The position numbers and the translations under genes were made by a program. Under the pieces are notes generated by a model, which worked only from the letters and a program-made list of their open reading frames with translations, was not told where the DNA came from and made no database searches. Positions 9,243-56,995 of a DNA stretch of 64,000 bases are shown here, piece by piece. The DNA is taken from contig OZ024743.1 of assembly GCA_964016885.1 (NCBI GenBank), positions 90,706,001 to 90,770,000 on the forward strand, given 5' to 3'. How positions within the stretch are numbered: the first letter of the stretch is position 1; the number at the start of each line of letters is the position of its first letter. Source of the DNA: Eledone cirrhosa (taxonomy: Eukaryota).

Positions 9243-9491
9243 GTGTTTCAGTCATTAAAAGAAATAGTACTGCATATTTGATCAAAAGGCTGGTTAAGAA
9301 TGAATCCAAGCCTATGTATGGTGTTGAAGTTGATGGATCAGTCATAACAATGAACCGGAAAGTCATAATGGAAAATAGTATACCAAAGGTTGATACGTTG
9401 AATAATTTAAAACTTATGCCGTGCTCTAAATATGGAGGAAACCATTTCCGTTGCTACGTAGTGACAAGTATTCTCGGTTCAGAAGTGTACA
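9243..9491 (+). CDS. Gene A internal exon (phase 1-1), uncharacterised Cys-patterned protein
   Basis: Poly-T tract and TTTAG acceptor; 249 nt open (GVSVIKRN...LMPCSKYGGNHFRCYVVTSILGSEVY); donor A|GTAAGT; similar to gene B exon 56995-56825. Confidence 0.7.
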
Positions 9492-11615: not shown

Positions 11616-11696
11616 TTACCTTCAATATAATCTTCTCAATGGTCGATGTTATAATCAATATTAAATTGAATAATTATCGGGGTCATATAAATCTTA
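11616..11696 (+). CDS. Gene A small internal exon (81 nt, phase 1-1)
   Basis: TTTTCAG acceptor, open frame ITFNIIFSMVDVIINIKLNNYRGHINL, donor A|GTAAGT; positional counterpart of the 72-nt gene B exon. Confidence 0.6.
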
Positions 11697-11871
11697 GTAA
11701 GTGATATTTCTTTTTTGTTTAATAGTTTCTGATTGTCGTTTTCCTTTCGAACATGAAATATTTCTTGTAAACAGGATCTCCCACTGAATGTAATGTTTCA
11801 TTCCTCCTCCCTCCCTCCTCTCCCCTCCCACTTCCTCCTGCCTTCCGCCTCCCCCCCCCCCCCCACCTCCT

Positions 11872-13035
11872 CATCTAACTCCCAATTCACCCAAATCACA
11901 ATTTATCTAACTCACAAATTATCTAACTCACAATTCTTCTAACTCACAATTTATCTAACTCACAATTCATCTAACTCACAATTCATTTAACTCACAATTT
12001 ATCTAACTCACAATTTATCTAACTCACAATTTATACAACTCACAATTCTCCCTACTCACAATTCATCTAACTCACAATTCATCTAACTCACAATTTATAC
12101 AACTCACAATTCATCTAACTCACAATTTATCTAACTCACAATTCATCTAACTCACAATTTATACAACTCACAATTCATCTAACTCACAATTTATACAACT
12201 CACAATTCATCTAACTCACAATTCATCTAACTCACAATTTATCTAACTCACAATTCATCTAACTCACAATTCATCTAACTCACAATTCATCTAACTCACA
12301 ATTCATCTAACTCACAATTCACCTAACTCACAATTCATCTAACTCACAATTTATACAACTCACAATTCATCTAACTCACAATTCATCTAACTCACAATTC
12401 TTCTAACTCACAATTCTTCTAACTCACAATTCTTCTAACTCACAATTCACCTAACTCACAATTCATCTAACTCACAATTCACCTAACTCACAATTCATCT
12501 AACTCACAATTCATCTAACTCACAATTCATCTAACTCACAATTCACCTAACTCACAATTCACCTAACTCACAATTCATCTAACTCACAATTCATCTAATT
12601 CACAATTTATCTAACTCACAATTCACCTAACTCACAATTCATCTAATTCACAATTTATCTAACTCACAATTCACCTAACTCACAATTTATCTAACTTACA
12701 ATTTATACAACTCACAATTCATCTAACTCACAATTTATCTAACTTAGAATTTATACAACTCACAATTCATCTAACTCACAATTTATCTAACTTACAATTT
12801 ATACAACTCACAATTCATCTAACTCACAATTTATCTAACTTAGAATTTATACAACTCACAATTCATCTAACTCACAATTTATCTAACTTACAATTTATAC
12901 AACTCACAATTCATCTAACTCACAATTTATCTAACTTACAATTTATACAACTCACAAGTCATTTAACTCAAAATTTATCTAACTCCCAATTTATACAACT
13001 CACAATTCACTTAATTTACAATTCATCTAAATTCA
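11872..13035. repeat. 16-bp tandem minisatellite (CTAACTCACAATTCAT)n, about 70 copies
   Basis: Directly visible; variants TTTAT/TTCAC/TACAAC; preceded by a C-rich tract at 11802-11870. Confidence 0.95.
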
Positions 13036-13362
13036 TATTTAAAAAAAATATATTTTCACAAAAAATAATAAATATAGTTCTCTTATGCATCAAATTTATT
13101 ACTACTATGCTTTACGGTATAGAGTTACGGCCCTTTACGTCCCGAGTTCAAATCCCACTGAGGTTAGCTTTGCCTTTCATCCATACGGGGTCGATAAAAT
13201 AAAGTACCAGTCACGCACTTGAGTCGATTTAATCGACTTTGTCCCCCTCTCAAGTTACTGGCCTTGTGCCTAAATCAGAAACAATTATTATTATGCCTTA
13301 CGACACAGAGCTATGGCCCTTTACACTCTGAGTTCAAATCCCACCGAGGTTAGCTTTCTAAA

Positions 13363-16300
13363 GGCGACTGGAGACCTTCATAGGAACTTCCTGCTCTTTA
13401 ATTTTAGTGGGTGATTGGAATGGGATCTTGGATTCATGCTGGAATTGTGTGGGATTAGCGGATAGAGGACGAGGGTGTAAAAGCCTCGCAAACCTGCTCA
13501 GACGTTTCCCACTGTCTGACAGGTACTGACCGGATTTCCCAATGGATAAACGGCATCAGGTCATCCTGACTATATCTAGATAGAGTATTTTGTAAGGAAA
13601 TAGATAGTTCTAGCATAGGTTGTCTACTATTCAAAATATTTGACTACACAGACGACAAATTCGTGATCTGCGTGGTCGACTTAGATATGCTTCATAGACA
13701 GAGACCCAGCTACTGGAAGCTAAACGCGTCATTTACAGCACGCAAAGCAGATTAGTTAAGCGGGCATTGACGGGAGCAATCATCAACAACAAATGGTGGT
13801 TTGCCCTGAAAAGGGTGATTAGAATAGAGTCTATTAGGTTAAGTAAGGCGTTAGCAATAGAGAAAAATAGAGCAGGGGAAAACTAATTAGTAAATTAGAT
13901 GAGGCGCTTAGTAAAGGCATCGTGACCGACATGCTTGTGGCGAAATTGGCCCTCGACCAATTCTTCAACGCAAAGTACAAAGGCTGCGTTATCAGAACTA
14001 GGGCGCGTGCTCTCAGACACGAGGGGGCAAAAGCCGTTCAATGGGTCCGAGTGGCGGAGGCGCGTCATGGCAACAAAGCCACGATCCTGTCTTTCGCATG
14101 TTACTCGATCTCGGGCAAATGTTACTCGATCTCGGGCAAATGTGTGCAGCTTTTCAGTGACACTTCACTCAGCTGTTTGGGGGCAACAGTGGGTTAGATC
14201 ACAGGATGGACTTTAGCGCCTACTTCGACAGACTGCCGCGGTTCTCGGCAACTGAGGCGGAGCATTGCGAAAGGCCGATAACACCCGCTGAAATACGAGT
14301 AGCAATGTCTGACTGCACGATGGGTAAATCGCCTGGTTTGGATGATCTGCCTGACGAGTTTTACGTACACATGCCAGACTTGTTCGGAGACCTCTTGGCG
14401 GATGTCTACTGCAATTGGCAGCAGAATAGGAATACTCCCATCTCTGTGAGCCGAGGAGCGGTAGTGCTGCTGAGAAAGGACCTGAACAAAAGGGACAAGA
14501 TAGATAATTTCAGGCCCATAACTCTGCTAAATGCAGAGTTCAAGATTTTGGCCCAGGTGCTAGCAAAGAGGTTGGCGCTTGTCGTCAGTGGTCTGGTGGG
14601 AGAGGCGCAGACATGCGCCATTCCAGACAGATCCACCCACGACAACCTCCACCTCTTGCGATACATCATGGAAAGGGTAGCTAAGGAACCTGGCTCGGGA
14701 GGGGCCTTGATGAATTTAAATCAGTCGAAAGCTTTCAATAGGGGCGACCATCATTATCTGGCGGCAGCCCTGATGACAGCCGGCTTGGGGTCCGTCTTCA
14801 GAAGCTGGATCGCTGCCATGCACAGCGACATCTGCTCTGTGGTGAGAGTGAACGTTCACCTTTCGGAACCGTTCAACATCATGCACTCGGTTTGCCAAGG
14901 ATGTCCCCTCTCATCCCTGTTGTACGTAGTGACTCTCAAGCCATTACTGCACAAACTGGAGACGTTGAGGGCGTCCTGCACGAACTAGGATGCGGAAGAA
15001 CCATGTCAACATATGCCGACGACGTCACCGTAGTGGTGTCGAATGCCAAACACATCGAGCACCACACTAAGAGAATACGAGGTGGTGACAGGAGCAATGA
15101 TCAACCAGGAAAAATCAGTAGGCCTGCAACTCGGCACCTGTAGAGGCAAGTCTATGCCGTCCAACAGCGTCATCGGGCGCTAGACGGACAGACCGGTTAA
15201 ATTGCTAGGGGTCTGGTTCGGTCCGGACCTCCAGACGGACAAAAACAGGGAGGAGGTGACGAGCAAGGTGGCTTCTCTCACCCAGAAATGGGCCGAGAGG
15301 AAGCTATCCCTGAAAGGTCAAGCGGAGGTGGCGAACGCGTACATCGCATCCATCATCTACTACCGCCTGACCATCGTGCCTTGTCCTAAGCCTTGCCTGA
15401 CTGCACTGGAGCATTTGCTCTATTGCTTTTTGTGGAAGGGACGTGCTCCGATGGTCAGGCGGTCCATCTGCTGTCAACACCCGCTACACAGAGGGCTGGG
15501 CATGCTGTGGCTGATGATACGCAGACATACGCTCAGGCTACGACATCTCCACTTCTTCCTCGACGGTGATCAGGTGTGGTCACCCTTTGCTAGACACATG
15601 TTTTCCCAGCTCGTCTACTTGATGGAGCTGCAGTCCTGGGTCAAGCGAAGACCGAGAGGGAGCGCTTGGAGACTGGAATGTCTTCAGGCGCTCACAGCCT
15701 TCGACCAATCGGGCAGTGTGATCGGGGGAAACTCCACCTTGGCGTTCTATAGAGGATTAGTGGAGGGGAAGAGCGACGACTTACTTGGAGAAACTCTAGG
15801 CGTCGACGAAAATCAACTAGCCAATCCCTTCGGAAGAACTTTCGGGCCGGGGCCTATGGACAACTTCCAGAAATCCCTGGCCTGGCAGTGCTACCGAGGA
15901 GCTTTGCCAGTTCGGGATAAACTCTACAGGCATGGAGGTGCCGTCAGCAGGGCATGTCCGAGATGCGCACAGGGCGACGAAACCATCCTGCACGCACTCG
16001 TCCAGTGTCCGAGAATTGCTGACTTGTGGGTTTATGTCGAACACCTGCTGTCGCGTGTAGGACGGATCCGGCTATCAGCTGAGTCCATCGTGAGGATTGC
16101 CCCGCCCTCTTCCTTTAGCCGGGAAGGGCAGGCAGTTTTTATCTGTCTGGTGGCCATGGCGAAAGAGATAGTATGGTGGACACGTTTGAAAGGGCTGAAG
16201 ACGAGCACTTACCTCTTCGGTGATGCTCTGATTAACTTTTTCAAATTTCATTTGAAAAGGAAAATCAGGGTAGAGAGGGAAGTGCTCTCTTGCCAGCATT

Positions 16301-16616
16301 TTGTTGAAAATGGGTGAGAGAAGCAAGAATGGCCCGAGTGAATGGGCCTACTCTGAGTATGTGTCTGTAAATTAAAGGTGGAAAACTGGGAGAGGGCACT
16401 TGCCCTGGTGGTCAGGGTCACTGTGGCCTTTTAATGGGCTTTCTCCACAAATGTCCCTCGGAAGTCTCCCCCCTATTTGGGAATTTTTCATTGTTATTTT
16501 TATTACATCCTCTGTTTTTGTTTTTTTACACGCAGAAATGCCCATTTGTACCGTCCTGTATTGTCCTGTACTGTCCTTAAGGTCTACTTTATGTAAGCCC
16601 TTGTGGTTAATAAAGA

Positions 16617-16653
<37 letters not shown>
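13363..16653 (+). mobile_element. 5'-truncated, degenerate Tx1/L1 LINE copy
   Basis: Colinear with ~19227-22579, with stops and frameshifts (ORF pieces 14206-14988, 15202-16317); (TTA)n tail. Confidence 0.92.
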
Positions 16654-16860: not shown

Positions 16861-18824
16861 ATGGCTAATTCCCCTCTGCACGAAGCAGCTGAAAGCCTTC
16901 CTCACAAAATAACACCTCACACCGACACCACCATTGTAAATGTTACTACGTTTGCCAACACAAAAAAAAATATAAGCAGTAGCAATATTTTAAATTTGTC
17001 TCAGGCAGACATTCATTTCCCGCCATTACCAATGACTGCAGGTGTTAAAGCCTCCACCACCACCACCACCGCGACAACCACCACCCCCACCACCACCGCG
17101 ACAACAGAAACAAAAGAAGAAAAAAATAAATTAACTCGTGATGTCGAAATGAAATCAAGCAAAATGGACTCTTCCGCACCAAAGACGACTGACGTCACCA
17201 CCACCACAACTGAAACTAAAATTAATATTAACACAAATAACGATAGCAACAACAACAACAATGACATTATAAAACCGACCCTCAGTTTCGCCATAGTAGC
17301 AAAACAATTTGAAGCATTCACGGTAACTCAAGACGATTTAGAAAATGCCAAACAAATGGTAAAGAAAAATGGGTACAGGGTCAGCCCCCCCCCCACCTAA
17401 TAAAATGGAGCATCGGCGCCTATGCACCGTGTCGTATAGAACAATAAATGTAAAATCGCGCCGAGTGGAACGGGCATCCGAGTCCCAAATCCAAAAAGCT
17501 TTGGGACATGTGTGGGCAAGAAAAACCCACATCAGACGTGGGCAAAAGTATGGAACCGTGGATGTGTTCTTTGAAACACCAGAGGAGGCTAGAGAACACT
17601 CCATGGCCCCATTAAAAAGTGACGACTTCACACTCGTCCCAAGCTATTGTGGCCAGAGACTCGTAAAGATCAGGGTGACCCACGTTCCACCGGCCATCGA
17701 AATTCCCTGGCTAATAGCGGCTGTCCTCGCCGGCATCGAAGCCAACACGAAAATAATAGCAATAGCAAAAGAAAAGCAGGAAAACTGGTCCGGATCTGGG
17801 ATGGAGCTCCTAATCCAAGCGGACCAAAAAAGCATTGAGGAGATCCCAGAGGTAATAGACCTCACTGACGGCAGCCACCTCACGGTAATTGTCGAGGGCA
17901 GAAGACCTAGGTGTGTCGTTTGTGGTGAAGGAACCCACCTAAGGGCTTTCTGCCCTCAGGCTAAAAGGTTGAGGCCACCTCTCCTACCCACCCCAGTGAC
18001 ACAACCATCAACACCACCAGTAGCAGAGATGGCAGCAACAACTGTAGCAGCAACAACAGAAGCAACTATAACAGCAACAACCCCAGCAACAGTAGCAGAA
18101 CCAACACCACCACCACCCAACGCTTCAGAACTAGCACCAGCGCCTACACCATCCACCACACCACAACCAAAACTAACGGCTGTGGAAGATTTTCCACTCC
18201 CCGGCCTATCACAACTGGAGACAGATTGTGACGACGAGGAGTGGGAAACGATATCCGGAAAAAAAAAGAAACCAAAAAAGAAAAAATTCTCTTCCTTCCC
18301 CCTCCAAAAACAAAATACAGAGGGAAACAAATAAACTAAGAAACAAAAAAGTTAGGACAGATATGCCACCATCCACACCAGCATCACCAACCCCATCAAC
18401 CCAAACACCAACACCATCACCATCATTAACTCCAACACCACCATCACCTACACCACAAAAGTCACCAAAATGCGAAACAGAAACAAACCCACAACAAACG
18501 CAAACAAAACAAAACAACCAAAACGATACACACTACACAGCATTAAATTTGAACAACAAGCAATTATTACACTACATCCAACACAACACCAGCATCACAG
18601 AAAAAGACTACACAACAACCCCAAAATTCACACCACCTCCACACATACAAATCACTCGCATCACACAGAAAACGTACATGACACTAAAACAAAAATTCCC
18701 CAAAGACATCGGAGACTTCCGACAAGCACTCTCCAGGAGGATTTATAAGGACATCCTTCCTGAGGAGGCCACAAGCAGTGAAAAGGATGGAAAAACCGTC
18801 CTTCCCCTACGAGAAGTAAGGTAA
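16861..18824 (+). CDS. Tx1 ORF1 (gag-like), broken by two +1 shifts at homopolymers
   Basis: MANSPLHE... stops after a C10 run (~17385-17394); next frame has CVVCGEGTHLRAFC (CX2CX4HX4C); a second shift near an A9 run (~18259-18267) leads to the frame ending at 18824. Confidence 0.7.
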
Positions 18825-18858
18825 GTGGTCTTTCCCATCTTTTCCACTCCTTTTCAAC

Positions 18859-21800
18859 ATGACCTCACTCAGAATAGGCAGCATAAATGCGCGTGGCTTG
18901 GGGTCGTCATGGAAGCAGGGCCACCTGCTCAACGACCTCAGGTCACTAAACATAGATGTAGTGGCCATCAGCGAGACCAGAATCTCCGAAGCACAGGCTT
19001 TCGCACCGATCTTCGGCGGCTACGATGTGTACGCATCTCCCAGCCGTCCGGGATCGGGGGGAGGAGTTGCTGTGCTTTTTCGGAGAGGTTTGGATCTTGC
19101 CATACGGGCCATCTTCCTGGACCCAGAAGGTAAGTTGGTGGTGCTGGACGTGACCAGCGGAGACGGGCAAGCTTTCAGGTTAGTGGCCGTCTATGCCCCG
19201 ACAGGAGCAGGGCGGCCTGATTTCTTCCGGCGTCTGGAGACCTTTCTTGGAACGTCCCGCTCTTTAGTGTTAGTGGGCGACTGGAACGGGATCTTAGATG
19301 CACGCTGGGATTGTGTGGGATTAGTGGATAGGGAAGGAGGGTGCAAGAGTCTCACCAACCTGCTCAGACGTTTTGAACTGTCTGACAGGTACCGAATGGA
19401 TTTCCCGAATGTACCAATGTGGACTTGGACAAATCGCATAGGGTCATCCAGATCATATCTAGATAGAGTATTTTGTAGGGAAATAGATAGGTCTAGCATA
19501 GGCTGTCCACAATTCAAGATAGTCAGCTACACGGACCACAAATTCGTGATCTGTGTGCTTGACTTAGATAGGCTTCATAGACGAGGACCCGGCTACTGGA
19601 AGCTAAACGCGTCCTTACCAGCGCGCAAGGCCTACAGAGACCGGATTAGCGAACTAGTTAAGCGGGCGTTGACGGGGGCCATCGTCAACAACAAGTGGTG
19701 GTTTGCTCTGAAAAGAGCAATTAGAATAGAGTCCATTAGGTTTAGTAAGACTTTAGCAATAGAGAAAAATAGAGCAGAGGGAGAATTAGTTAGAAAATTA
19801 GATGAGGCGCTTAGCAAAGGCATCGCGACCGACGTACTTGCGGCGAAATTGGCTCTTGACCAATTCTTCAATGCAAAGCACGAAGGCTGCGTTGTCAGAG
19901 CTAGGGTGCGTGCTCTCAGACACGAGGGGACGAAAGCCGTTCAATGGGCCCGAGTGGCGGAGGCGCGTCGTGGCAACAAAGCCACGATCCGGTCTTTGGT
20001 GGACCACGACGGGCGCATGCTACTCGATCCTGGGCAAATGTGTGAAGCTTTTCAGCGACACTTCGCTCAACTGTTCGGGGGCAGTGGCGGGCCGGATCGA
20101 GGGATGGACTTTAGTGTCTACCTCGACGGACTGCCGCGGCTTTCGGCCACTGAGGCGGAGTATTGCGAAAAGCCGATAACAACCGCTGAAGTACGGGATG
20201 CAATGACTAGTTGCACAAGGGGTAAATCGCCTGGTTTGGATGGTCTGCCCTATGAACTTTACGTACAAATGCCAAACTTGTTCGGAGGCCTCTTGGCGGA
20301 CGTCTACTGCAACTGGCAACAGAACGGGAGAATTCCCAGCTCTGTGAGCCGAGGAGCGGTGGCGCTGCTGAGAAAGGATCCGAACAAGGGGGATAACATA
20401 GATAATTTTAGGCCCATAACTCTGCTAAACACAGAGTTCAAGATTTTGGCCAAGGTGCTAGCAAAGAGGTTGGCGCTTGTCGTTGGTGGTCTGGTGGGAG
20501 AGGCACAGACATGCGCCATTCCCGACAGATCCATCCACGACAACCTCCACCTCATGCGATACAACGTAGAGAGGGTAGCTAGGGAACCTGGCACGGGTGG
20601 GTCTTTGATCAATTTAGATCAGTCGAAAGCCTTCGATAGGGTCGACCATCGTTACCTAGCGGCAGTCCTGAGGGCGGCTGGCTTTGGGCCCGTCTTCAGA
20701 GGCTGGATCGCTGCCATGCACAGCGACATCTGCTCTGTAGTGAGAGTGAACGGTCATCTTTCGGAACCGTTCAACATCATGCGCTCGGTCCGCCAAGGAT
20801 GTCCCCTCTCGTCCCTATTGTACGTATTGACTCTCGAGCCATTACTGCACAAACTGGAGACGTTGAGGGGGGTCCCGCGCGAACTAGGATGCGGAAGATC
20901 CGTGTCAGCATATGCCGACGATGTCACCGTAGTGGTGTCGAACGCCAAACACATCGAGGCGATCGGCACTACACTAAGAGAATACGAAGCGGTGACAGGA
21001 GCAATTATCAACCAGGAAAAGTCAGTGGGCCTGCAGCTCGGCACCTGGAGAGGCAGGTCCATGCCGTCCAACAGCGTCGTCGGGCGCTGGACTGACGGAC
21101 CGGTTAAATTGCTAGGGGTCTGGTTCGGTCCAGACCTCCAGACGGACAAAAACTGGGACGAGGTGACGAGCAGGGTGGCTTCTCTCACCCAGAAATGGGC
21201 CGAGAGGAAGCTATCCCTGAAAGGTCGAGCGGAGGTGGCGAACGCGTACATCGCATCCGTCATCTACTACCGCCTGACCGTCGTACCTTGTCCTAAGCCC
21301 CGCCTGACTGCGCTGGAGCGTTTGCTCTTTCGCTTCGTGTGGAAGGGACGCGCTCCGATGGTCAGGCGGTCCATCTGCTGTCAACACCCGCTACGTGGAG
21401 GGCTGGGCATGCCGTGGCTGATGATGCGCAGACACGCGCTCAGGCTACGACATCTCCACCTCTTCCTCGACGGTGATCAGGTGTGGTCGCCGTTTGCTAG
21501 ACACGTTTTTCCCCAGCTCGTCTCCTTGACGGAGCTGCAGTCCTGGGTCAAGCGAAGACCGAGAGGGAGCGCTTGGAGACTGGAATGTCTTCAGGCGCTC
21601 ACAGCCCTCGACCAATCGGGCAATGTGATCGGTGGAAACTCCACCTTGGCGTTCTATAGAGGATTAGTGGAGGGGAAGAGCGACGACGTACTTGGAGAAA
21701 ATCAAGGCGTCGACGAAAATCAACTAGCCAATCTCTTCGGAAGGACTTTCGGGCCGGGGCCTATGGACAACTTCCAGAAATTCCTGGCCTGGCAGTGCTA

Positions 21801-22275
21801 CCGAGGAGCTTTGCCAGTTCGGGATAAACTCTACAGGCATGGAGGTGCCGTCAGCAGGGCATGTCCGAGATGCGCGCAGGGCGACGAAACCGTCCTGCAC
21901 ACACTCGTCCAGTGTCCGAGCATTGCTGACTTGTGGGTTTATGTCGAACACCTGTCACGTGTAGGACGGATCCAGCTATCAGCTGAGTCCATCGTGAGGA
22001 TTGCCCCGCCCCCTTCCTTTAGCCGGGAAGGGCAGGCAGTTTTTATCTGTCTGGTGGCCATGGCGAAAGAGATAGTATGGTGGACACGTTTGAAAGGGCT
22101 GAAGACGAGCACTTACCTCTTCGGTGATGCCCTGATTAACTTTTTCAAATTTCATCTGAAAAGGAAAATCAGGGTAGAGAGGGAAGTGCTCTCTTCCCAG
22201 CATTTTGTTGAAAGATGGGTGAGAGAAGCAAGTATGGCCCGAATGAATGGGCCTTCTCTGAGTATGTGTCTGTAA
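18859..22275 (+). CDS. Tx1 ORF2: APE endonuclease, reverse transcriptase, C-terminal zinc finger (1138 aa)
   Basis: SINARGL, ISET, VGDWN, SYLDR, YTDH (APE); KSPGLDG, FRPITLLN, QGCPLS, YADD (RT); CPRC...HTLVQC. Confidence 0.95.
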   Translation: MTSLRIGSINARGLGSSWKQGHLLNDLRSLNIDVVAISETRISEAQAFAPIFGGYDVYASPSRPGSGGGVAVLFRRGLDLAIRAIFLDPEGKLVVLDVTSGDGQAFRLVAVYAPTGAGRPDFFRRLETFLGTSRSLVLVGDWNGILDARWDCVGLVDREGGCKSLTNLLRRFELSDRYRMDFPNVPMWTWTNRIGSSRSYLDRVFCREIDRSSIGCPQFKIVSYTDHKFVICVLDLDRLHRRGPGYWKLNASLPARKAYRDRISELVKRALTGAIVNNKWWFALKRAIRIESIRFSKTLAIEKNRAEGELVRKLDEALSKGIATDVLAAKLALDQFFNAKHEGCVVRARVRALRHEGTKAVQWARVAEARRGNKATIRSLVDHDGRMLLDPGQMCEAFQRHFAQLFGGSGGPDRGMDFSVYLDGLPRLSATEAEYCEKPITTAEVRDAMTSCTRGKSPGLDGLPYELYVQMPNLFGGLLADVYCNWQQNGRIPSSVSRGAVALLRKDPNKGDNIDNFRPITLLNTEFKILAKVLAKRLALVVGGLVGEAQTCAIPDRSIHDNLHLMRYNVERVAREPGTGGSLINLDQSKAFDRVDHRYLAAVLRAAGFGPVFRGWIAAMHSDICSVVRVNGHLSEPFNIMRSVRQGCPLSSLLYVLTLEPLLHKLETLRGVPRELGCGRSVSAYADDVTVVVSNAKHIEAIGTTLREYEAVTGAIINQEKSVGLQLGTWRGRSMPSNSVVGRWTDGPVKLLGVWFGPDLQTDKNWDEVTSRVASLTQKWAERKLSLKGRAEVANAYIASVIYYRLTVVPCPKPRLTALERLLFRFVWKGRAPMVRRSICCQHPLRGGLGMPWLMMRRHALRLRHLHLFLDGDQVWSPFARHVFPQLVSLTELQSWVKRRPRGSAWRLECLQALTALDQSGNVIGGNSTLAFYRGLVEGKSDDVLGENQGVDENQLANLFGRTFGPGPMDNFQKFLAWQCYRGALPVRDKLYRHGGAVSRACPRCAQGDETVLHTLVQCPSIADLWVYVEHLSRVGRIQLSAESIVRIAPPPSFSREGQAVFICLVAMAKEIVWWTRLKGLKTSTYLFGDALINFFKFHLKRKIRVEREVLSSQHFVERWVREASMARMNGPSLSMCL

Positions 22276-33582: not shown

Positions 33583-33749
33583 TGAATGGAACTATTGGAG
33601 AGATACATTTTGAAATAAAACATTGTAAAATCTATCTGTACATCACTAAAGTATACACCTTATCTGAACATTTCAAAAATATATGTGCCACTATGATAGC
33701 AATAAATAAAAAGAGAACATTTAAAAGGGTTCTTGGTTGTTTGAGGTAG
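33583..33749 (+). CDS. Gene A last recognisable coding exon (possibly truncated)
   Basis: TTTTTTCAG acceptor; phase-1 frame MNGTIGEIHF...KNICATMIAINKKRTFKRVLGCLR*; TxGxI and NxC are spaced exactly as in gene B; VYDID follows in the +1 frame. Confidence 0.6.
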
Positions 33750-33904
33750 AGTTCACCTGGTATATGATATTGATGATGATGAGGATGATGATCAAGGTGA
33801 AGAAGGGGAAGGAGAGTGAATGGTGGTGACCATGGTGGTGGTTGTTATTGAGATGATGATAACGTTGACAATGGTGAGGTTAGTAACATCCCCACATCTG
33901 TCTC

Positions 33905-35946: not shown

Positions 35947-38900
35947 TAGTTGACGTACTCAGCTTCGCCCGGGTAAACAGATGATAAGAGAAGACAGGTA
36001 AAAGAGAAAATTACTGTATTGGATGTTTGTCTGGTTACAGTATGAGGCGAGTCCGTGGTGTCTGTGTGATACAAAAACAGTAAAAAACATCTTCCAGATA
36101 TACCAGATTCTTTGTTGTACCGTGTATGCATAGTATATGAACAATTCTAGGTGCTCCCACCTAGAATAGTGACTTCTAGGAGATGGTTAATCTTCTGCCT
36201 GACTGTAAAACGTGTATCATTGCATAGACGTGGTTGTTCCACGTTTCTCAAAAGGATGATGGAAGTTCCAATCTTTTATATTATATGTAGATATAGATAT
36301 AGATAATTATTATACAAATGCCAAATTAATATGGATATGGATAACATGCTCATCTATAAGTGGTCAGCTATAATAATAAAACAACAAATTATATGACACA
36401 AAAATTTATTCTGTAATTTCCAGGCTCATAGCCACTGAGTAATAGCCAGTAAATATTGTCCAGAGTTCAACTCGGGGAGGTGGCCTGGTTTGAACTCCAA
36501 ACGGCGGATCCTTCTACTTCGAAAATAGAATCGTTTTTCAATATTACTCTAGCCCTGGCCGGCCATAGGATCCAACCTTTTTGCCAGACTCAGCATATGA
36601 TGAGGTTTTATTACCACCGCAATCAGAAGCGATAAATATTCTGCCAAAAAGCATTCAAATTAGGGAACACCCAGTCAATCAATGCTTGGCGGTCTAGTGG
36701 CATGACCAAATGGTCTGGGATTCTTACAGTCTGATTATCACCAACGTGTGGAAATTCATCGTTTCCCAACTGCATCAACCATCGGCCGTATGTCTCAGCC
36801 TCTTCGTTTTGCCCGAACATACGAAGTCGCATATTATCGTGTAATCGCAAAACTCTGAAATGGTGCCACAACGGGGACTTTTTCAGACATGCATCGACAA
36901 TTTGCGCTCTTTGAGCATTCCTAACAATTGGTAGCACCTGTCTGAAATCGCCACCAAGAACGATAGTCTTACCACCGAATGGCAGGTCACTACCGCAGAT
37001 ATCTCTCAAAGTTCTGTCCAATGCCTCCAGCAAATATCTGTGTGCCATTGGAGCCTGTCCCAAATAATCAGAGATGTATTGTGTATAAGGCCCGGGAATT
37101 CACTTTGTCCTGTAATGTTACAGACACTCAACTCATCCGGAGCCAATGGAGCCTTGAAGTATGAGTGGAACGTCCTTCCACCACTCAGCAAAGTGGCAGT
37201 GATCCCACTGGTGGCCACAGGGAGAGCAATCTTCCTCAGAGCTCTGACTGCCGGTAACATAGTGTTGAAACAGAATGTCTTTCCGGTGCCTCCTGGAGCA
37301 TCTATGAAAGCACAAAGTTGCTCATTAGTGGAAATCGAGTGGAGAACGCCATCGACCAATTCTCTCTGAGATTGGGTCAACATTGGCATACGTTCATCCA
37401 CAATACGTTGCTGTTCCAGTGGATCAAACTGGAATAGTTCCCTCCGATCTAGTTTCAACCGTCTAAGCTGCAATCTCATGTTCAATGCTAAGACACGTTG
37501 CCGCATTTCTTCATCAGGAATTGGCAAATTGAAATGTCTTAAACATTTGAAATGAACTTCAAGCATTTGCTCAATATTGAGCAAAACAATAGCTTTCATC
37601 AAATTTTCATCATCGACCTGAAGATGATGACTAAAATCATCAGCGATAATTCCCCCATGGCGTTCAAATAACTCTCTTGGATCGGCAGGATTGCAGAATC
37701 CTAGAATCGTGACAAACAACTGCCTTATTTGAGCTGGCATCTGTGTTGTTCCTGCAGCTTCCATGGCGTTATTCCATTCAGCATCATCCTGAAGGAGTCC
37801 CAGATGCTGACACATAGCCTGGTATGTTTCATATTCCACACCATTGATTGTTTTCAAATCAGCGAAGCTCTTTTACCTCTCGAAAAATCATTATGCAACA
37901 GAATTCGGAGATAAAACACATCACCAGATGCGGGATGGACATTACAAACCCGTCCAATAGTCATGAATCTCAACTTTTGTTTTCTATCATTCCATTTCTT
38001 TCCCTTCTTATCCTACGTATAGTGCGAAGGGAAATCGCAGTAGAGTTGCCTTTGATCCGGGTTCAAAGCATGTTCCCTATTATGCTTGAACCACTCAGTC
38101 AATTCCGTCTTAGGAGATGGTGCGTTAGCAATTCTTTCGACACCTCTTCTAGTGTCCTGAAAACAGATCATTTGCCTATACTCTAGGTGAACCGTCAGTT
38201 TCTGAACGCTGGGTTTGCGTTCATTGAGATCAAAATCGAACAATCTCCAGTAAGCTTCGCTAGATCCTGTCAACTTCTTCTCCTTGGTTCGCTTCCTCAT
38301 TCCTGACATTGATCATTGCCCCATCATGACCTTTGTAAACATATTTGAATAGATATTTGCAAGCTTTCACTGAGCTAAAAATTTCCATATTAATATGACA
38401 ACGATATTTCATAATCAAATATGGATTGTATGGCACAACCCATTGATTTGTAACCCGTCGACCGTTTACATTTTCGACCAAACCGCCATCTGCAGGCGAC
38501 CGGCTTCTGTATGAGGGATGAGCATCCCCATCGTTCCAGGAAGTGTTCGCGACTAAAGATTTGCATTGGCCATTTTTCATGCAAGGCGCTTTCCGATTTG
38601 CTACTCCGCATTGGTTGTGCACCATTGACTTTGTCACCAAGTTGCGTAGTGCCTCATTCTCCGGCAGTTCAGCACACACAACGCTGTCGACATCCTCAGC
38701 TCATCTCAATTTGCAATCGCTATGTAAAATGATCAGAAAATGTGCATGTGGCAATCCTCTTTTTGGGAATTCAATTACGTATGTAAAAGCAACTATACCT
38801 CCAAAGATTCCCTCTTTTTCCACATCATCCATTATCTTTTTCAGATATCCTTTGAATACTCTTGCCACAATATCAGGACGGTCTGTTGGCTGTTGTCCTG

Positions 38901-41077
38901 GCAAAAGTGCTTCCTTAATATCAGCCCATTCAGGATTGCATGTAACCGTTATAAACAAATCTGGCTTTCCAAACTTTCTGACAATAGCCATTGCATCCTG
39001 ATAGCGAACGTTCATATATCTCGGGCCGCTGATGAACGACGATGGCAAAATGATGCGTCGACCAATTTGCTTGTAATTGGCATTATCGGCTGTTATCGCA
39101 TCCTGTATATTATTATACAATTCAGCTCTGATATGTTGCTGATGTGTAGCTATATAATTTAGCCTTTGATTTTCGATCTTTGCGAATGCCATACAACAGT
39201 ATTCCTGGAACAATCTGCTGGCTTGAAATAGCGCATTCCTCTGTTGATTCCTCTCGTAAAAGTCGCGAATCGAATTATTGTCTATTGCCGCCTCCCTGTT
39301 GATGCTGATTCTCATGATCATCTAAATGAACAGACATGTTCCATCCATTTTCATCTTTTGAGAATAAAAGAACATTATACAATGGATCGTATGCCCTATT
39401 TGACTCATTGATAGTCTTGAGACCACCATCTCTGCGATTGAGGACGATATCTCTCGATCCAGGCTTATCGTCCATCAACACAGCAACTTCACGAAATCCT
39501 TCAGGGGCATTATATCGCCGTTCATGTTGATTCCTTGACACTGCGTCAGCCTTAATCACCAATGTCTGCTGCTGAACATTTTGCAGTTCAGCCACCAACA
39601 TGAAATCCATGACATAAGGATTACACTGTCTAAGCCATGATTGCAAATCACGGATCAAATCACTTAATCTTAGCTGTTCAAGTTCAGTTATATTTCCCGG
39701 CAACTTCATCCAACCGATCCTGATATCCTCCTCCGATTCACTATAATCTGGATCGTTAACGTAAATTTGAGCGAATCGAGGCCTCTCTCCTGGGGTAACT
39801 TCTAAATTACAGATACAATGATACAAACGACCTTGAATGACTACATTCGGTTGCCATGCTCCACTCTCAAACATCTCACTAACTCTTTGCGATGTTAAAG
39901 CTAATGAATTGTTAATTTGCCGCGAATATTTGCGCAGTAATCTACCTCGGTCTCCTTGATCACCCCACATACTTAGTATTTTAAACTCCGGTGACTCCTC
40001 ATCATCCGGCATTCGCAAGGGTTCTAGTTGAACTGCTCCATTATGACAGCACATTGTGGCCCACGTCTTTTCGTGCCTCCAAAGCAAAGCTCCACTATGT
40101 GGACACTCTGCTCGTCCACCAATCTGAAAATGACACGGTTGCCATGATCCATTTTTAATATCATCCGTTCGCCTTCTAGCCTCTTTACTGGAATGAGGAG
40201 CACTTTGGCGACACATTCTCTGCACTTCTGTATTGCGCTGGTGGTGTTCAGCCAGCTCCTCTTCATCCATCGCTGCACGCTGTTGCTGCTGAATTCCGGC
40301 CATCTGCTGATGATGCTCCGCCAGTTCGTCTTCAACCATCGCAGCACGCCGTCGCTGCTTGGCTCCAGTGTTTCGTTGGCGTTGTTCAGCCAGCTCCTCT
40401 TCATTCATGGCGGCACGTCTTCGCCTCTGAAGTTCGGCGTTCCGATGGCGCTGTTCGGCCCGTTTTTCTACATTTCTGGCTGCACGCCGTCGCCGCTGTA
40501 GTTCACTGTTTGATAAAGTCGAATTGCTTTTATTATCAGTATTCATTTCGAGCAATTGTCAAAAAATGACACAATAATAAATATAAAAGATGTCTGTCAA
40601 TGTAAAAAAAGGTCCCTATTTACTCCCTTCACAACTCTGTGTATGTTAGACTGACAGACAGGCACACAGACAGATAAACTGCGTGGCGATTGTGGAACGC
40701 ATGGAAACGCGAACACACACGCAAACTTACACACGCACACACTCACACATGTTGATAGTTTTTACTTTCTGTGGAACGCTTCACGCACGCACACACTCAT
40801 AAACATGCGCGCACGTACATACACACGCACACATGTTAATAGTTATTGCTTTCCTTCCCCTCTTATTTCCACACACATCACACACACACATGTCTCTACA
40901 CTGACACATTTACATAGTGTATCCAACACAGCATTCACACTTTCCCCTCTCACTCCCTCATTGGCATTATGCATATTAATTTCAGTTTGGCGTCGTTGAG
41001 GTGGGCGGAGTCGTTTGAAACCTATGAACCAATGATAATCAAGAATTATGACACACGGAATACTGACATTGTTCAAA

Positions 41078-49530: not shown

Positions 49531-50724
49531 TTAACTATTCTGCCAAACCACCGCCCTTAATAATTGTTTCTACTTTTGGCACAAAGCCAGCAATTATTCC
49601 AGTATATTACTGGTACTTTATTTTATCGACTCCGTAAGGATGAAAGGCAAAGTTAACCTCAGCAGGATTTGAACTCAGATCATAAAGGGAGGTAACTCTA
49701 TGCTTCAAAGCATGGCATCCGACTCTCTACCGATACCGCCAAAATAATGGTTTCTGATTTATGCACAAAGCCAACAATTTATTGACCCCGTAAGGATGAA
49801 AGGCAAAGCTAATCCTGGTGGAATTTGAACTCAGAATGTAAAGGGACGCAACTCTATGCCACAAAGTATGTTATCTGACACTCTAGGATTCTGCCAATTC
49901 ACTGCCATTACAACAACAATGATAATGATGACAACAGAAATAATAGAATTAGTACTTATAATACTATCTTTATTTGACTAAAGGAATATCAAATTTACAA
50001 AATTATAAGCATTACAATGCGATTCAACAAGATTATGCCATATGATTATGCCATATGATTTAGAATAAAATAGTATATCGTAATTGTCATTAATCAAATA
50101 AACATACAAGTTACATGTGAATACAAAGCTTTTGTGTCCAGTTGAATATATAAATGTACATTATAAAGATATCTGACTAATGCAGTATAGTGAGATTGTA
50201 TGTATTCTTATTGTATCTCATGAATATTATCAGAGTATTAATAATGGCTTCTTAACTTAGGCACAAAGCCAATATATATCGATATCATTAAGTGACTGAT
50301 ACATTAGTATATGACCCCTGGAAGATTGACAGGAAAATTTGACCACGGACGGATTTGAAACCAGAACGTAAGGAGCCAAAAGGAAATTTTCTTCTGTTGC
50401 AATAGAGAGTCTGTCAATATTTCGCTCCAATAATAATGTTAATAAGAGTGAAGTTTTCTATTATAAACACAAAGCTATATATTTTAGAGAAGAACTGGGA
50501 ATATAGTGTGCCTATTTCAGAAATATATTATTGGCATTTACAATGTAACTAAATATTCTAAAGTTACAAATCATTAATATATGATTTTTACAGCCTCTCA
50601 CTGATTATTTTTGGCAATTTGTAAAAGAATATCGCATTCATGGAAACCACTCTCTGTAGTAACATTCATATGGTCGCCATATTCATGGTACATAGGCCGA
50701 TTCCTTTAAAGATGATGATGATGA

Positions 50725-53482
50725 ATCGTTATCACTATATTTATATTTACCCATCTTCATCTCACCATTATCATCATCATCATATTTATTACTATATTTA
50801 TATTTACCCACCTTCATCTCACCATTACCATCATTATATTTATCACTATATTTATATTTACCCACCTTCATCTCACCATTATCATCATTATATTTATTAC
50901 TATATTTATAATTATCCACCTACTCACAATTATCATCATTATATTTATCACTATATTTATATTTACCCACCTTCATCTCACCATTATCATCATTATATTT
51001 ATTACTATATTTATAATTACCCACCTTCATCTCACCATTATCATCATTATATTTACTACTATATTTATATTTACCCACCTTCATCTCACCATTACCATCA
51101 TTATATTTATCACTATATTTATATTTACCCACCTTCATCTCACCATTATCATCATTATATTTATCACTATATTTATATTTACCCACATTCATCTCACCAT
51201 TATCATCATTATATTTACTACTATATTTATATTTACCCACATTCATCTCACCATTACCATCATTATATTTATCACTATATTTATATTTACCCACCTTCAT
51301 CTCACCATCATTATATTTATCACTATATTTATATTTACCCAACTTCATCTCACCATTATCATCATTATATTTACTACTATATTTATAATTACCCACCTTC
51401 ATCTCACCATTATCATCATTATATTTATTACTATATTTATATTTACCCAACTTCATCTCACCATTACCATCATTATATTTATCACTATATTTATATTTAC
51501 CCACCTTCATCTCACCATTATCATCATTATATTTATCACTATATTTATATTTACCCAACTTCATCTCACCATTATCATCATTATATTTACTACTATATTT
51601 ATATTTACCCACCTTCATCTCACCATTATCATCATTATATTTATCGCTATATTTATATTTACCCACCTTCATCTCACCATTACCATCATTATATTTACTA
51701 CTATATTTATATTTACCCACCTTCATCTCACCATTATCATCATTATATTTACTACTATATTTATAATTACCCACCTTCATCTCACGATTACCATCATTAT
51801 ATTTATCACTATATTTATATTTACCCACCTTCATCTCACCATCATTATATTTATTACTATATTTATATTTACCCAACTTCATCTCACCATTATCATCATT
51901 ATATTTACTACTATATTTATATTTACCCACCTTCATCTCACCATCATTATATTTATTACTATATTTATATTTACCCACCTTCATCTCACCATTATCATCA
52001 TTATATTTACTACTATATTTATATTTACCCACCTTCATCTCACCATTATCATCATTATATTTACTACTATATTTATAATTACCCACCTTCATCTCACCAT
52101 TACCATCATTATATTTATCACTATATTTATAATTACCCACCTTCATCTCACGATTACCATCATTATATTTATCACTATATTTATATTTACCCGCCTTCAT
52201 CTCACCATTACCATCATTATATTTATTACTATATTTATATTTACCCGCCTTCATCTCACCATTATCATCATTATATTTATTACTATATTTATATTTACCC
52301 ACCTTCATCTCACCATTATCATCATTATATTTACTACTATATTTATATTTACCCACCTTCATCTCACCATCATTATATTTATTACTATATTTATATTTAC
52401 CCATCTTCATCTCACCATTATCATCATTATATTTACTATTATATTTATATTTACCCATCTTCATCTCACCATCATTATATTTACTACTATATTTATATTT
52501 ACCCACCTTCATCTCACCATCATTATATTTATCACTATATTTATATTTACCCACCTTCATCTCACCATTATCATCATTATATTTACTACTATATTTATAT
52601 TTACCCACCTTCATCTCACCATCATTATATTTATCACTATATTTATATTTACCCATCTTCATCTCACCATTATCATCATTATATTTACTATTATATTTAT
52701 ATTTACCCATCTTCATCTCACCATCATTATATTTACTACTATATTTATATTTACCCACCTTCATCTCACCATCATTATATTTATCACTATATTTATATTT
52801 ACCCACCTTCATCTCACCATTATCATCATTATATTTACTACTATATTTATATTTACCCACCTTCATCTCACCATCATTATATTTATCACTATATTTATAT
52901 TTACCCATCTTCATCTCACCATTATCATCATTATATTTACTATTATATTTATATTTACCCATCTTCATCTCACCATCATTATATTTACTACTATATTTAT
53001 ATTTACCCACCTTCATCTCACCATCATTATATTTATCACTATATTTATATTTACCCACCTTCATCTCACCATTATCATCATTATATTTACTACTATATTT
53101 ATATTTACCCACCTTCATCTCACCATCATTATATTTATCACTATATTTATATTTACCCATCTTCATCTCACCATTATCATCATTATATTTACTATTATAT
53201 TTATATTTACCCATCTTCATCTCACCATCATTATATTTACTACTATATTTATATTTACCCACCTTCATCTCACCATCATTATATTTATCACTATATTTAT
53301 ATTTACCCACCTTCATCTCACCATTACCATCATTATATTTACTACTATATTTATATTTACCCACCTTCTTCTCACCATCATTATATTTACTACTATATTT
53401 ATATTTACCCACCTTCATCTCACCATTACCATCATTATATTTATCACTATATTTATATTTACCCACCTTCATCTCACCATTG
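50725..53482. repeat. 54/48-bp minisatellite, roughly 50+ units, with a 252-bp higher-order period
   Basis: Unit CCACCTTCATCTCACCAT(TATCAT)CATTATATTTACTACTATATTTATATTTAC; the CCATCTTC variant in a 54-bp unit recurs at 52401, 52653, 52905 and 53157. Confidence 0.95.
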
Positions 53483-53756
53483 TCAATATCATATACACCT
53501 TCATATGGACCTGAATTAACAAGGTTCTGTTTAACTATACCATTGCTGGCAATCTCCATTCTTTCAGAATATGTACGCAAAGCATCATTGTTTAACGTCA
53601 GATCAAAGCAGCCAATATCCAATATGATTTGTTTCAGTTCTTTTGTCATTACCCTGAAGCAATGATTTGCTGTACTGGAGATATTTCTGGTTCTGGCTAT
53701 TTGGAAACGAAGTACATTTTGTTGTGGATCTTTATTCTTGATGTTTCCGAACGTTC
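50920..53756 (-). CDS. Gene B terminal exon: Cys-domain C-terminal half plus (GEMKVGKYKYSxKYND[DG]N)n repeat
   Basis: Pyrimidine tract and AAG acceptor at 53757; phase-1 frame RTFGNIK...NHCFRVMTKELKQIILDIGCFDL joins the 909-aa ORF in frame; TAG at 50920-50922, after which the same frame stays open to TGA at 50683. Confidence 0.7.
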
Positions 53757-54689
53757 CTTTAAAGAAATGTATAAAAGAAATTAAAAGAAAAACATTTTCT
53801 TGAACGGTTATGATGATGTTTTTGACTTGAAGTCATTGTGATTTGTTTGCATGTTTCTTTTTTTTGTGTGTGTTGTGAATCCTTTTAAATATTGAATAAT
53901 CTTTAAAGGCTCAGGCAGAGGCGACAGAGCGGTTTCCATGACCCCCTTTTAAATGTCTATATGATTTGCAAGAGGAAATGAAAAAATTATTTTTATAACG
54001 AAATGCATTCCGCCAAAAGCCTCTAAACACCAAGTGATGGAGTTAAACCGGGTTAAGGATTATGTTTAATAGTCCAGAACAGAAATAGCTTTCCACACAT
54101 TTTGCGTCAACCCTATTACGTTTCGCTAACTACAGTCGATCCGAGACTATGGTATAAAACACATGCACAAGGTATCGCCGCGCAGGCAAATAAAATCCAC
54201 AGTATGATTGTGCCTCATTCAATATTCTAATTATAAGATGCTAGATTTATTCCTTGTAAGCTTAGACATTTGTTTCTGGATGCTTGGAAACACTAATATC
54301 TTAGCATAATTTGAAACCCTGGCTATATCGAAGGAAGTTGTTTGGCGGACACTGTTAAAAAAGTTAAGTAGAGGGTTTTTCACATCACAAACTATTTCGC
54401 CATGACTATCAGATAGATAAAAGCTGACTGCAAATTCTGACCAAAGGAAGGTTGCGAGGCGATCTTTACAATGGACTCAGCTGAGAGCTGTATCCATACA
54501 CATCATACACATGATAGCAGCTTTTCGATGTAACTCCACTAGCAATGCTCTGGTAGGGTTGGTTCGATATAAACCTTCAGGCAGATAGGAGCTGAAACGA
54601 AGTTACGAGCAGGGTAGCCAATCTCACCCCAAAATAGACTGAGAGAAAGCTTTCTCTGAATGGTCGGCCAAGGGTGTAGGACGCATTTA

Positions 54690-55070
54690 TTGCCGCGTGA
54701 TCACTGTGAATTTCGTAGCTCGGTGATCAGAGAGTCACTCCATGTAGAGCCGCTATTTCTCCGAATTGAGAGATCACAGCTCCGATACTATTGGCATGTG
54801 GTTAGAAAGTCTCAAGAAAGAAACGCTGGACAGATTTTATGGGCAAAACTAACCGAGCAAGATGGTTGGATAACATCCATGAGCTTGGCTGGTCACGCTT
54901 GGGGTTCCAGTCGGATCAGTGGGAGACGGTTGCTTCTGACTGGGCCCGCAGGAGGGAGTGTTTCAAGACTGCCCCCACGACCACGACCCTCTCAGGAATA
55001 AGTGAAAAAAGAAGAAGAAGAAAAAGAAGAAGAAGAAGAAGAAGAAGAAGAAGAAGAAGAAGAAGAAGAA
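54690..55070 (+). mobile_element. RTE (Rex3/Expander-like) 3' fragment with (GAA)n tail
   Basis: IRESLHVEPLFLRIERSQLRYYWHVVR; similar to 32930-33470. Confidence 0.8.
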
Positions 55071-55611: not shown

Positions 55612-55683
55612 TTGCCAATAATTTCCCGTTTACGTGGATGACATTTGAAAACTGACCATTCCGTAAGAATGCTAGAGTTCGAA
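55612..55683 (-). CDS. Gene B small internal exon (72 nt, phase 1-1)
   Basis: TTTCTATCAG acceptor; FRTLAFLRNGQFSNVIHVNGKLLA; donor A|GTAAGT; keeps frame between flanking exons. Confidence 0.7.
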
Positions 55684-56824
55684 CTGATAGAAATAAATAA
55701 ATACATATATAAATAACAACAACAATAACAACAACTCTATGCCACAAAGCATGTTATCCGACACTCAACTGATTCTGACACTCTACTGATTCTTACAACA
55801 ACAATGATAATGGTGACAACAGAAATTATAGCATTAGTACTTATAATACTATCTTTATTTGACTAAAGGAATACCAAATTTACAAAATTATAAGCATTAT
55901 AATGCGATTCAACAAGATTATGCCATATGATTTTGAATAAAATAGTATATCGTAATTGTCGACCCTGCAAAGCATGTTGTTAGACGCTCTATCAGTACTG
56001 CCACTCCACCGCCCTTGGTTTCTGATTTAGGCACAAGGCTAGCAAATTGAAGGGGAGGGGAAGTCAATTAAATCGACTCCAGTGCATTACTGGTACTTTA
56101 TTTTATCGACCCCGTAAAGATGAAAGGCGAAGCTAACCTCAGCGGGATTTGAACTCAGAACGTAAAGGGCCGTAATTCTATGCTGCAAAGCATGTTGTCC
56201 GGCGTTCTATCTATACTGCCACTCCACCGCCCCGGGTTTCTGATTTAGGCACAAGGTCAACAATTTTGGGGAAGGGGAAAGTCGATTAAATCTGAGGTAC
56301 TGGGGTGGATTTTTCTCACTCCCTTTTCTTCATTCTTTTTTCTTTAATCCCGTCTCTCACACTCCCTCTCTCCCGGAGAACGGGCTCCACCAGGTTTAAC
56401 ATGCCCAAAACGCCACTTCTATATCAGGATTTACGGGTCCATACATAATCAAGGCGGCGAGTCGTTAGAACGTCGGTTAGAATCCTTTGCGTTCTTCGTT
56501 TTGACGCTCTGCTCTCTGAGTTCAAATCCCGCCAAGGTCAACTTTACCTTTCATCCATTCATAGTCGATAAAAAAATGTACCACTCTAGTACTGGGGTCG
56601 ATTCTTCCTCTATATCTCTTTCTCACTTACATTCTCTCACTCACTGTACCCTACTCTAGGAGAAACCCGATTAATTCTGATATGGAGAGTGATTGGCTCC
56701 ACCAGGTTTAAAAATGCCCCAGAAACGCCGTATGTCAATATGGCGTCACTACGATACCCTTAGGAGTTATGGGACCATGCACATAGATAATTTTAAAAAT
56801 AATAGAAAAAACAATTTGGCTTAC

Positions 56825-56995
56825 ATTCACTGTTTCCGATATTGAGACTACATGAAATCAGGTTGCCAATAAATTTACAAGGAGCTTCTTGTACAATCAG
56901 AATATCATTAACATCGACATTGCTGATGTTTGCTTCAATTTTCTCCGAGTTGACCATTTTCTCTGGTAGAGTATTATCACCAACCATTCTCATTG
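56825..56995 (-). CDS. Gene B exon (171 nt, phase 1-1)
   Basis: Long pyrimidine tract and TTTCCAG acceptor; [12 protein letters not shown]...[23 protein letters not shown]; donor T|GTAAGC. Confidence 0.7.

Follow-up and report, generated by a model that had tools for sequence, protein, structure and literature searches.

A putative gene on the minus strand of the Eledone cirrhosa genome, gene B, runs in frame from its last known exon into a giant minisatellite, which if left unspliced would give its protein a predicted tail of 852 residues. The gene lies for the most part in a window of 64,000 nucleotides (contig OZ024743.1, positions 90,706,001 to 90,770,000). From the acceptor at 53756 onward, the minus-strand frame stays open across a cysteine-containing stretch that ends in GCF and then across 49 repeat units, and it is closed by a TAG that precedes the array's end by four units. 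Judging by the sequence, we tentatively read the tail as translated but accidental, a neutrally drifting extension that would have arisen when a frameshift bypassed the stop of an old acidic tail and the sequence was then amplified. An accidental expansion of this kind is more likely than a new glue. If translated, it would be a very large example of protein made out of formerly non-coding DNA, as about 850 residues would derive from 54 bp on either side of an old stop codon, and it would mean that an adhesive-like Tyr/Lys composition can come from AT-rich DNA without selection. The weights given to this and to the other readings are our judgement and were not computed.

Table 1. Features of gene B, its array, the possible intron and paralog A (window positions unless a contig is named)
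Feature	Position	Strand	Remark
Gene B, likely exon 1 (signal peptide)	outside window, G000:C4:90773791-90773884		94 nt, donor A/GTAAGT; the most plausible-looking among many hydrophobic stretches found in unmasked DNA
Gene B, exon 2	56825..56995	-	171 nt, phase 1-1, two Cys
Gene B, exon 3	55612..55683	-	72 nt, phase 1-1; one of three candidates left after filtering, ranked joint first
Gene B, exon 4, unique head	53479..53756	-	C-x16-C(F) motif, about 40 more residues, end VYDIDN
Segment common to B and A	53473..53496	-	24 nt, 21/24 identical to A (33760-33783), VYDIDNGE in B; straddles first donor motif
Minisatellite, 53 units	50729..53481	-	TRF: period 54, 52.8 copies
In-frame TAG	50920..50922	-	in a degenerate 51-bp unit; end of the 1,057-aa read-through product (DDNCE, then stop)
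78 codons downstream of the TAG	50683..50919	-	include the proposed unique C-terminus; untranslated in this assembly
First canonical AATAAA past the array	49969..49974	-	
Possible intron, GT-AG, phase 1	50704..53477	-	predicted; 2,774 nt, donor 53478/53477, acceptor 50704/50703
Possible short terminal exon	50666..50703	-	predicted; preceded by a pyrimidine-rich AAG acceptor, TGA after 11 codons
Paralog A, exon 1 (signal peptide)	outside window, G000:C4:90695189-90695279		
Paralog A, exon 2	9243..9491	+	
Paralog A, exon 3	11616..11696	+	81 nt, phase 1-1
Paralog A, exon 4 to stop	33583..33749	+	LGCLR, then TAG ending 33749
Paralog A, acidic stretch	33760..33820	+	VYDIDDDEDDDQGEEGEGE, then stop; frame differs from exon 4

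Gene B is likely an intact, lineage-restricted gene of four exons whose product would be secreted. Both the gene and its paralogy with a neighbour, A, had been proposed in an earlier sequence-only reading, and both hold. The four cysteines of the two align and all introns are in phase 1. The four putative B exons have canonical phase-1 sites, are intact and free of stops, and carry four cysteines that also align with those of the Octopus relatives described below. We infer how these exons join and that the product is secreted; the candidate first exon is a hydrophobic stretch 10.8 kb upstream of exon 2. A third exon is required because joining exon 2 straight to exon 4 yields a TGA. Another candidate for the signal exon, at 93538, was rejected as it sits in a retroelement with an 89% copy elsewhere in the genome (L085). 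Short-read contigs cross a B intron unspliced, as DNA does, and 53482-54742 is spanned unspliced by one DNA contig per run with 0 differences.

Paralog A has four plus-strand exons separated by phase-1 introns and codes for 195 residues plus stop, with gene B facing it from the minus strand. Against the Octopus vulgaris relative (P0018) it scores 263, which none of 1000 shuffles equals. The same comparison for B, with its exon 2 shifted one codon, gives a score of 50, reached by 8 of 1000 shuffles. With the same one-codon shift, B against A is not significant (658 of 1000 shuffles score at least as well), and a three-sequence profile searched against 999 shuffles does not place B in its seven best rows. 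From the sequences, then, the kinship of B to the family is of moderate strength. Other close paralogs of A and B were not found in a genome search.

The relatives came from a HMMER search with exon 2 of paralog A, which returned 17 rows with one single-stretch match, an uncharacterized protein of Octopus bimaculoides (P0010). The other rows were set aside; they are long proteins matched mostly through short repeated stretches, and 8 of the 11 scanned with Pfam are PAS-repeat proteins. Three relatives are recognised, LOC106876296 of O. bimaculoides (XP_014780278.1), LOC115218674 of O. sinensis and CAI9731737.1 of O. vulgaris, all uncharacterized. They have a signal peptide, as predicted for A and B, and like A and B they have four cysteines and a GC[FL] ending; they are clear kin of A and remote kin of B. 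Unlike B they end 9-10 residues past the GCF motif, with neither an acidic nor a repeat tail. A single-sequence fold of P0018 had a pLDDT of 37 and was set aside.

We call A and B DUF4773-like, B distantly so, rather than members of that family because the likeness is that of a relative in the ESM Atlas and is not seen in Pfam. The O. vulgaris relative resembles a DUF4773 cluster of the Atlas (0.90, with 197 of 256 features shared), and 9 of its 10 best family matches agree. With the same language-model features, the head of B exon 4 by itself finds unnamed clusters only, with a recognition of 1874, below the bar. Pfam searches for DUF4773, a family of secreted arthropod and mollusc proteins (PF15998, curated cut-off 27 bits), at E<=10 gave no match for P0018, P0010 or four A and B exons, A and B having been scanned exon by exon, and the genome-wide search gave four matches below the cut-off, none of them at A or B. 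These weak matches resemble A/B in that their last exon is in phase 1 and carries the C...GC[FL] end. The spacing C-x(14-17)-GC[FL] occurs in A, B, L053 and L055, and is a motif read from these rows rather than a curated one. The N-terminal cysteines differ, with two in A and B against a cluster of five in L054. The exons at L053 and L054 (both on C2) and L055 (C4) are more typically DUF4773-like, and taken one exon at a time they score under the Pfam cut-off. DUF4773 proteins are recorded in oyster haemocytes and in locust glands in the available texts of PMC12064177 and PMC6966819, and the literature searched, as far as its available text goes, holds no mention of a repeat tail on them.

The array is real, spans 2.75 kb and continues the frame of gene B's last known exon. 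When divided at its anchor, it consists of 34 units of 54 bp, 16 of 48 bp, one of 51 bp, one of 57 bp and a last partial one, in a single phase throughout, and a higher-order repeat of 252 bp, equal to five units, lies at its 5' end. The sequence-only reading had counted about 50 units of 54 or 48 bp in a tail of about 860 residues. Most of the 53 units do have those two lengths, units of 51 and 57 bp are also present, and the predicted tail is ended by the TAG. The unique in-frame C-terminus which that reading placed behind the array (KYSDNDSSSSSLKESAYVP, then a stop) is not reached, since the TAG at 50922-50920 stops the frame first. The bins holding this TAG are covered by short-read contigs with no difference listed, although no listed piece bridges the TAG and the three short-read runs are one sample, possibly the assembly's own source.

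If unspliced, the predicted tail would be made up of Lys (22.3%), Tyr (17.3%), Gly (12%), Asn (12%) and Asp (11%) among others. It would be net basic, with 192 basic against 141 acidic residues, an acidic share of 17% and a pI of 9.2. The pattern of Tyr next to Lys, already remarked on in the sequence-only reading, is real and holds for 147 of 147 tyrosines. Shifting the frame by one base gives GGG-TAA in 52 of the array units, and on the plus strand two further frames are free of stops over the whole array.

No second array of B's repeat unit was found in a search of the 3.0-Gb genome. A suspected second copy of the unit at C3:351236156-351236821 turned out to be merely low-complexity matches of 18-25 nt without a family exon, and matches on C2 and C7 were likewise low-complexity DNA. 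Also on C3, an Asp/Asn-rich open frame of 87 codons (L108 2126-2389, plus strand) has a Tyr-Asp word among acidic residues and no family exon nearby. In the window, a direct duplication of 240 bp (87%; 49849-50088 and 55732-55960) flanks B's exon 4 and the array.

A short segment at the junction of exon 4 and the array is shared with paralog A. None of 3000 background windows reaches 20 in comparison with it, one of 3000 reaches its gapped score, and genome-wide the pattern is found at these two places alone. In this VYDID segment the two genes are 88% identical, even though their proteins can hardly be aligned; it may be either a constrained motif or the product of recent conversion between the inverted genes. 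Tyrosine among acidic residues resembles sulfation sites. The sequence-only reading had given A a short acidic tail at this position. A in fact stops at LGCLR, and the acidic stretch is in another frame. A one-base offset (window 33745-33820, plus strand) separates LGCL from an acidic tail that stays open for about 24 codons, and is either a true truncation or an assembly indel.

In gene B, one base out of frame, D-N-G-E is followed by D-E-G-G and a stop, and then by AT-rich, UTR-like DNA. On the reading we prefer, B would once have ended in a short acidic tail, as in A, and a frameshift would have taken its translation beyond the old stop. A 54-bp piece, made up of the end of that tail, the old stop and the start of the 3' UTR, would then have been amplified by slippage and by unequal exchange (the 252-bp higher-order repeat), being by luck a multiple of three in length and free of stops in the new frame. 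Translation and this order of events are what we infer. Against such a history, A's own acidic stretch is out of frame, and the ancestral state is read from the paralog. Extension of a C-terminus by loss of a stop is a process described in yeast and fly, for short segments, in the available text of PMC4494051. Those extensions are like B in that former non-coding DNA is read into the C-terminus of an older gene. They are unlike it in being short segments, whereas in B tandem amplification would give 852 residues.

Unit lengths that are multiples of three had been taken as a sign that a coding unit was amplified. The arguments for a selected coding repeat fail, as the frame stops early, such lengths are ordinary in this genome and the unit variants are neutral-like. 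Our background was 623 kb of this genome (40 scattered stretches of 10 kb each, plus 204 kb surrounding the window and two loci), in which 18 long arrays passed the filter. Among the 17 other than B's, which may include coding arrays and of which three rows at L101 may be one array, eight have a period that is a multiple of three (five of those eight fully open) and seven have a frame without any stop, in one case over 8 kb long. Fully open arrays with units of 27, 30 and 84 bp (L070 6957-9999, L102 1530-10000 and L074 7258-8269) can mimic giant coding repeats.

The variants among B's units point the same way. They comprise 15 distinct letters in 52 complete units, counted without the partial unit at the end and without the two codons that are altered in the TAG unit. 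In B's frame 14 are non-synonymous and one is synonymous, where neutrality predicts 21% synonymous (P=0.14). Purifying selection at an omega of 0.5 (P=0.012) or 0.3 (P=0.0007) is rejected by these few variants, and 15 changes without any stop are expected by chance with P=0.54. Young arrays have an omega near 1 even if they are useful. GC3 is 0.23 in the array, compared with 0.33-0.34 in the other coding parts of B, and low-complexity DNA elsewhere (L057) translates into similar peptides rich in Tyr, Lys, Asn and Asp.

Splicing at the first G/GTGAGA, a donor motif pointed out in the sequence-only reading and indeed present at 53478/53477, is a serious alternative, since the array is closely followed by an acceptor-like site. 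It is possible, if somewhat doubtful, that the whole array would be removed as a phase-1 GT-AG intron. Splicing would then yield an ordinary protein of about 217 residues instead of one of 1,057, and the array would be an ordinary intronic minisatellite, the amplified 5' end, together with four exon bases, of an intron that would measure 62 nt if the last unit alone were present. The first base of the array has a phase-1 donor motif, in keeping with the six other A and B introns, all phase 1, and G/GTRAG has a background frequency of 0.28 per kb (P about 0.015 in 54 nt). At the acceptor, 14 of 20 bases are pyrimidines (12-18 in the six other acceptors), there is no competing AG and a branch-like TAAC lies upstream, although such an acceptor is expected by chance in 60 nt with P about 0.14. 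An intron would explain the poly-Ser 'C-terminus', as a translated pyrimidine tract, as well as the neutral variants and the tolerated TAG, and open arrays with periods in multiples of three are common in this genome. However, A's matching segment is without the donor, and Gly-Glu codons by themselves give GGTGAG. In A, L053 and L055 the GC[FL] exon runs to its stop with no further exon. The segment shared by A and B extends beyond the donor motif, and the array is open for 49 units in exactly B's frame. As 47 of the array's 50 G/GTGAG motifs precede the TAG, B might make both products, or a ladder of them. According to the available text of PMC2367729, polyadenylation can be blocked by terminal-exon U1 sites that pair over 8 nt or more. 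The array's 50 donor-like sites could likewise hinder it, which would count against a translated tail, though as we read them these sites pair over less than 8 nt.

The remaining explanations concern whether the array is expressed as protein at all and, if so, to what end. We think it unlikely that gene B is a silent or decaying gene, with the array carried as a passenger in a last exon that is dead or non-productive. An ortholog or other relative of B was not found in protein databases, its frame contains the TAG and varies neutrally, and nine AATAAA motifs within the array could yield transcripts without a stop; yet the splice sites in four B exons are intact and no stops have entered them, although the similarity of A and B is near-random. 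Coding by the plus strand, from an ATG at 50640 to a TAA ending at 53519 (959 residues rich in His, Tyr, Pro and Ser), seems very improbable. That frame is fully open, the degenerate unit included, and 6 of the 15 variants are synonymous in it, but the synonymous excess is not significant (P=0.13), such openness is expected by chance (P=0.4), and the frame is antisense to B with no signal-like start. The sequence-only reading likened the tail of B to the DOPA/Lys adhesives and cross-linked structural proteins of molluscs. On that view it might be a secreted polymer under selection, serving as a Tyr(DOPA)/Lys adhesive or as cross-linked structural material in mucus, egg cement or sucker cuticle, and if translated and DOPA-modified it would be a new cephalopod biomaterial. 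We consider this quite unlikely. Its basic excess, the Lys beside every Tyr and the likely signal peptide of B would suit such a role. In the available texts, the mussel protein Mcfp5 has 20.8% Tyr and contains the word GKYKY, also present in B's repeat (PMC7018726), a DUF4773 protein is listed among octopus skin mucus proteins (PMC11431876) and octopus egg cement is produced by the oviducal gland (PMC8976471). As far as these sources go, Mcfp5 and the tubeworm cements Sa-1/Pc-1 are, like the predicted tail, rich in Tyr, Lys and Gly; the tail differs from them in being 17% acidic, fused to a Cys domain, showing no sign of selection and giving no sequence match to them. The early TAG and the rejection of purifying selection argue against an adhesive, as do the Tyr/Lys-type peptides that ordinary low-complexity DNA gives here, and the major octopus egg-tether protein named in the available text of PMC12817120 is octovafibrin, which is of EGF type. 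None of 7,996 candidates scored with the repeat reaches E<=0.001, which is weak evidence and covers proteins of 297-2000 aa. In a bolder form, as improbable as the last, B would be a secreted DUF4773-like protein whose newborn Tyr-Lys polymer came from a former stop and 3' UTR, forming a length-tunable, mussel-like DOPA/Lys adhesive. An isoform ladder of 0 to 46 repeats could follow because nearly every unit has an in-phase donor and one acceptor lies behind the array. The available text of the literature searched gave no prior description of this locus.

The DNA around the two genes contains several other repeats. The third intron of paralog A holds a minisatellite based on 16 bp (window 11871-13030, TRF periods 32/48) which begins about 175 nt past exon 3. 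Further along the same intron are two intact-looking frames on the plus strand (window 17338-22275), an ORF1 of 323 residues and an ORF2 of 1,151, with a decayed 89% copy at 13355-16653. We take these to be an apparently intact LINE, as ORF2 has endonuclease-like and reverse-transcriptase-like motifs. The minus strand between A and B carries fragmented frames at 36623-40558 that are presumably of a Helitron-like Rep/helicase, again by their motifs, and include a 69-bp repeat at 40245-40504.
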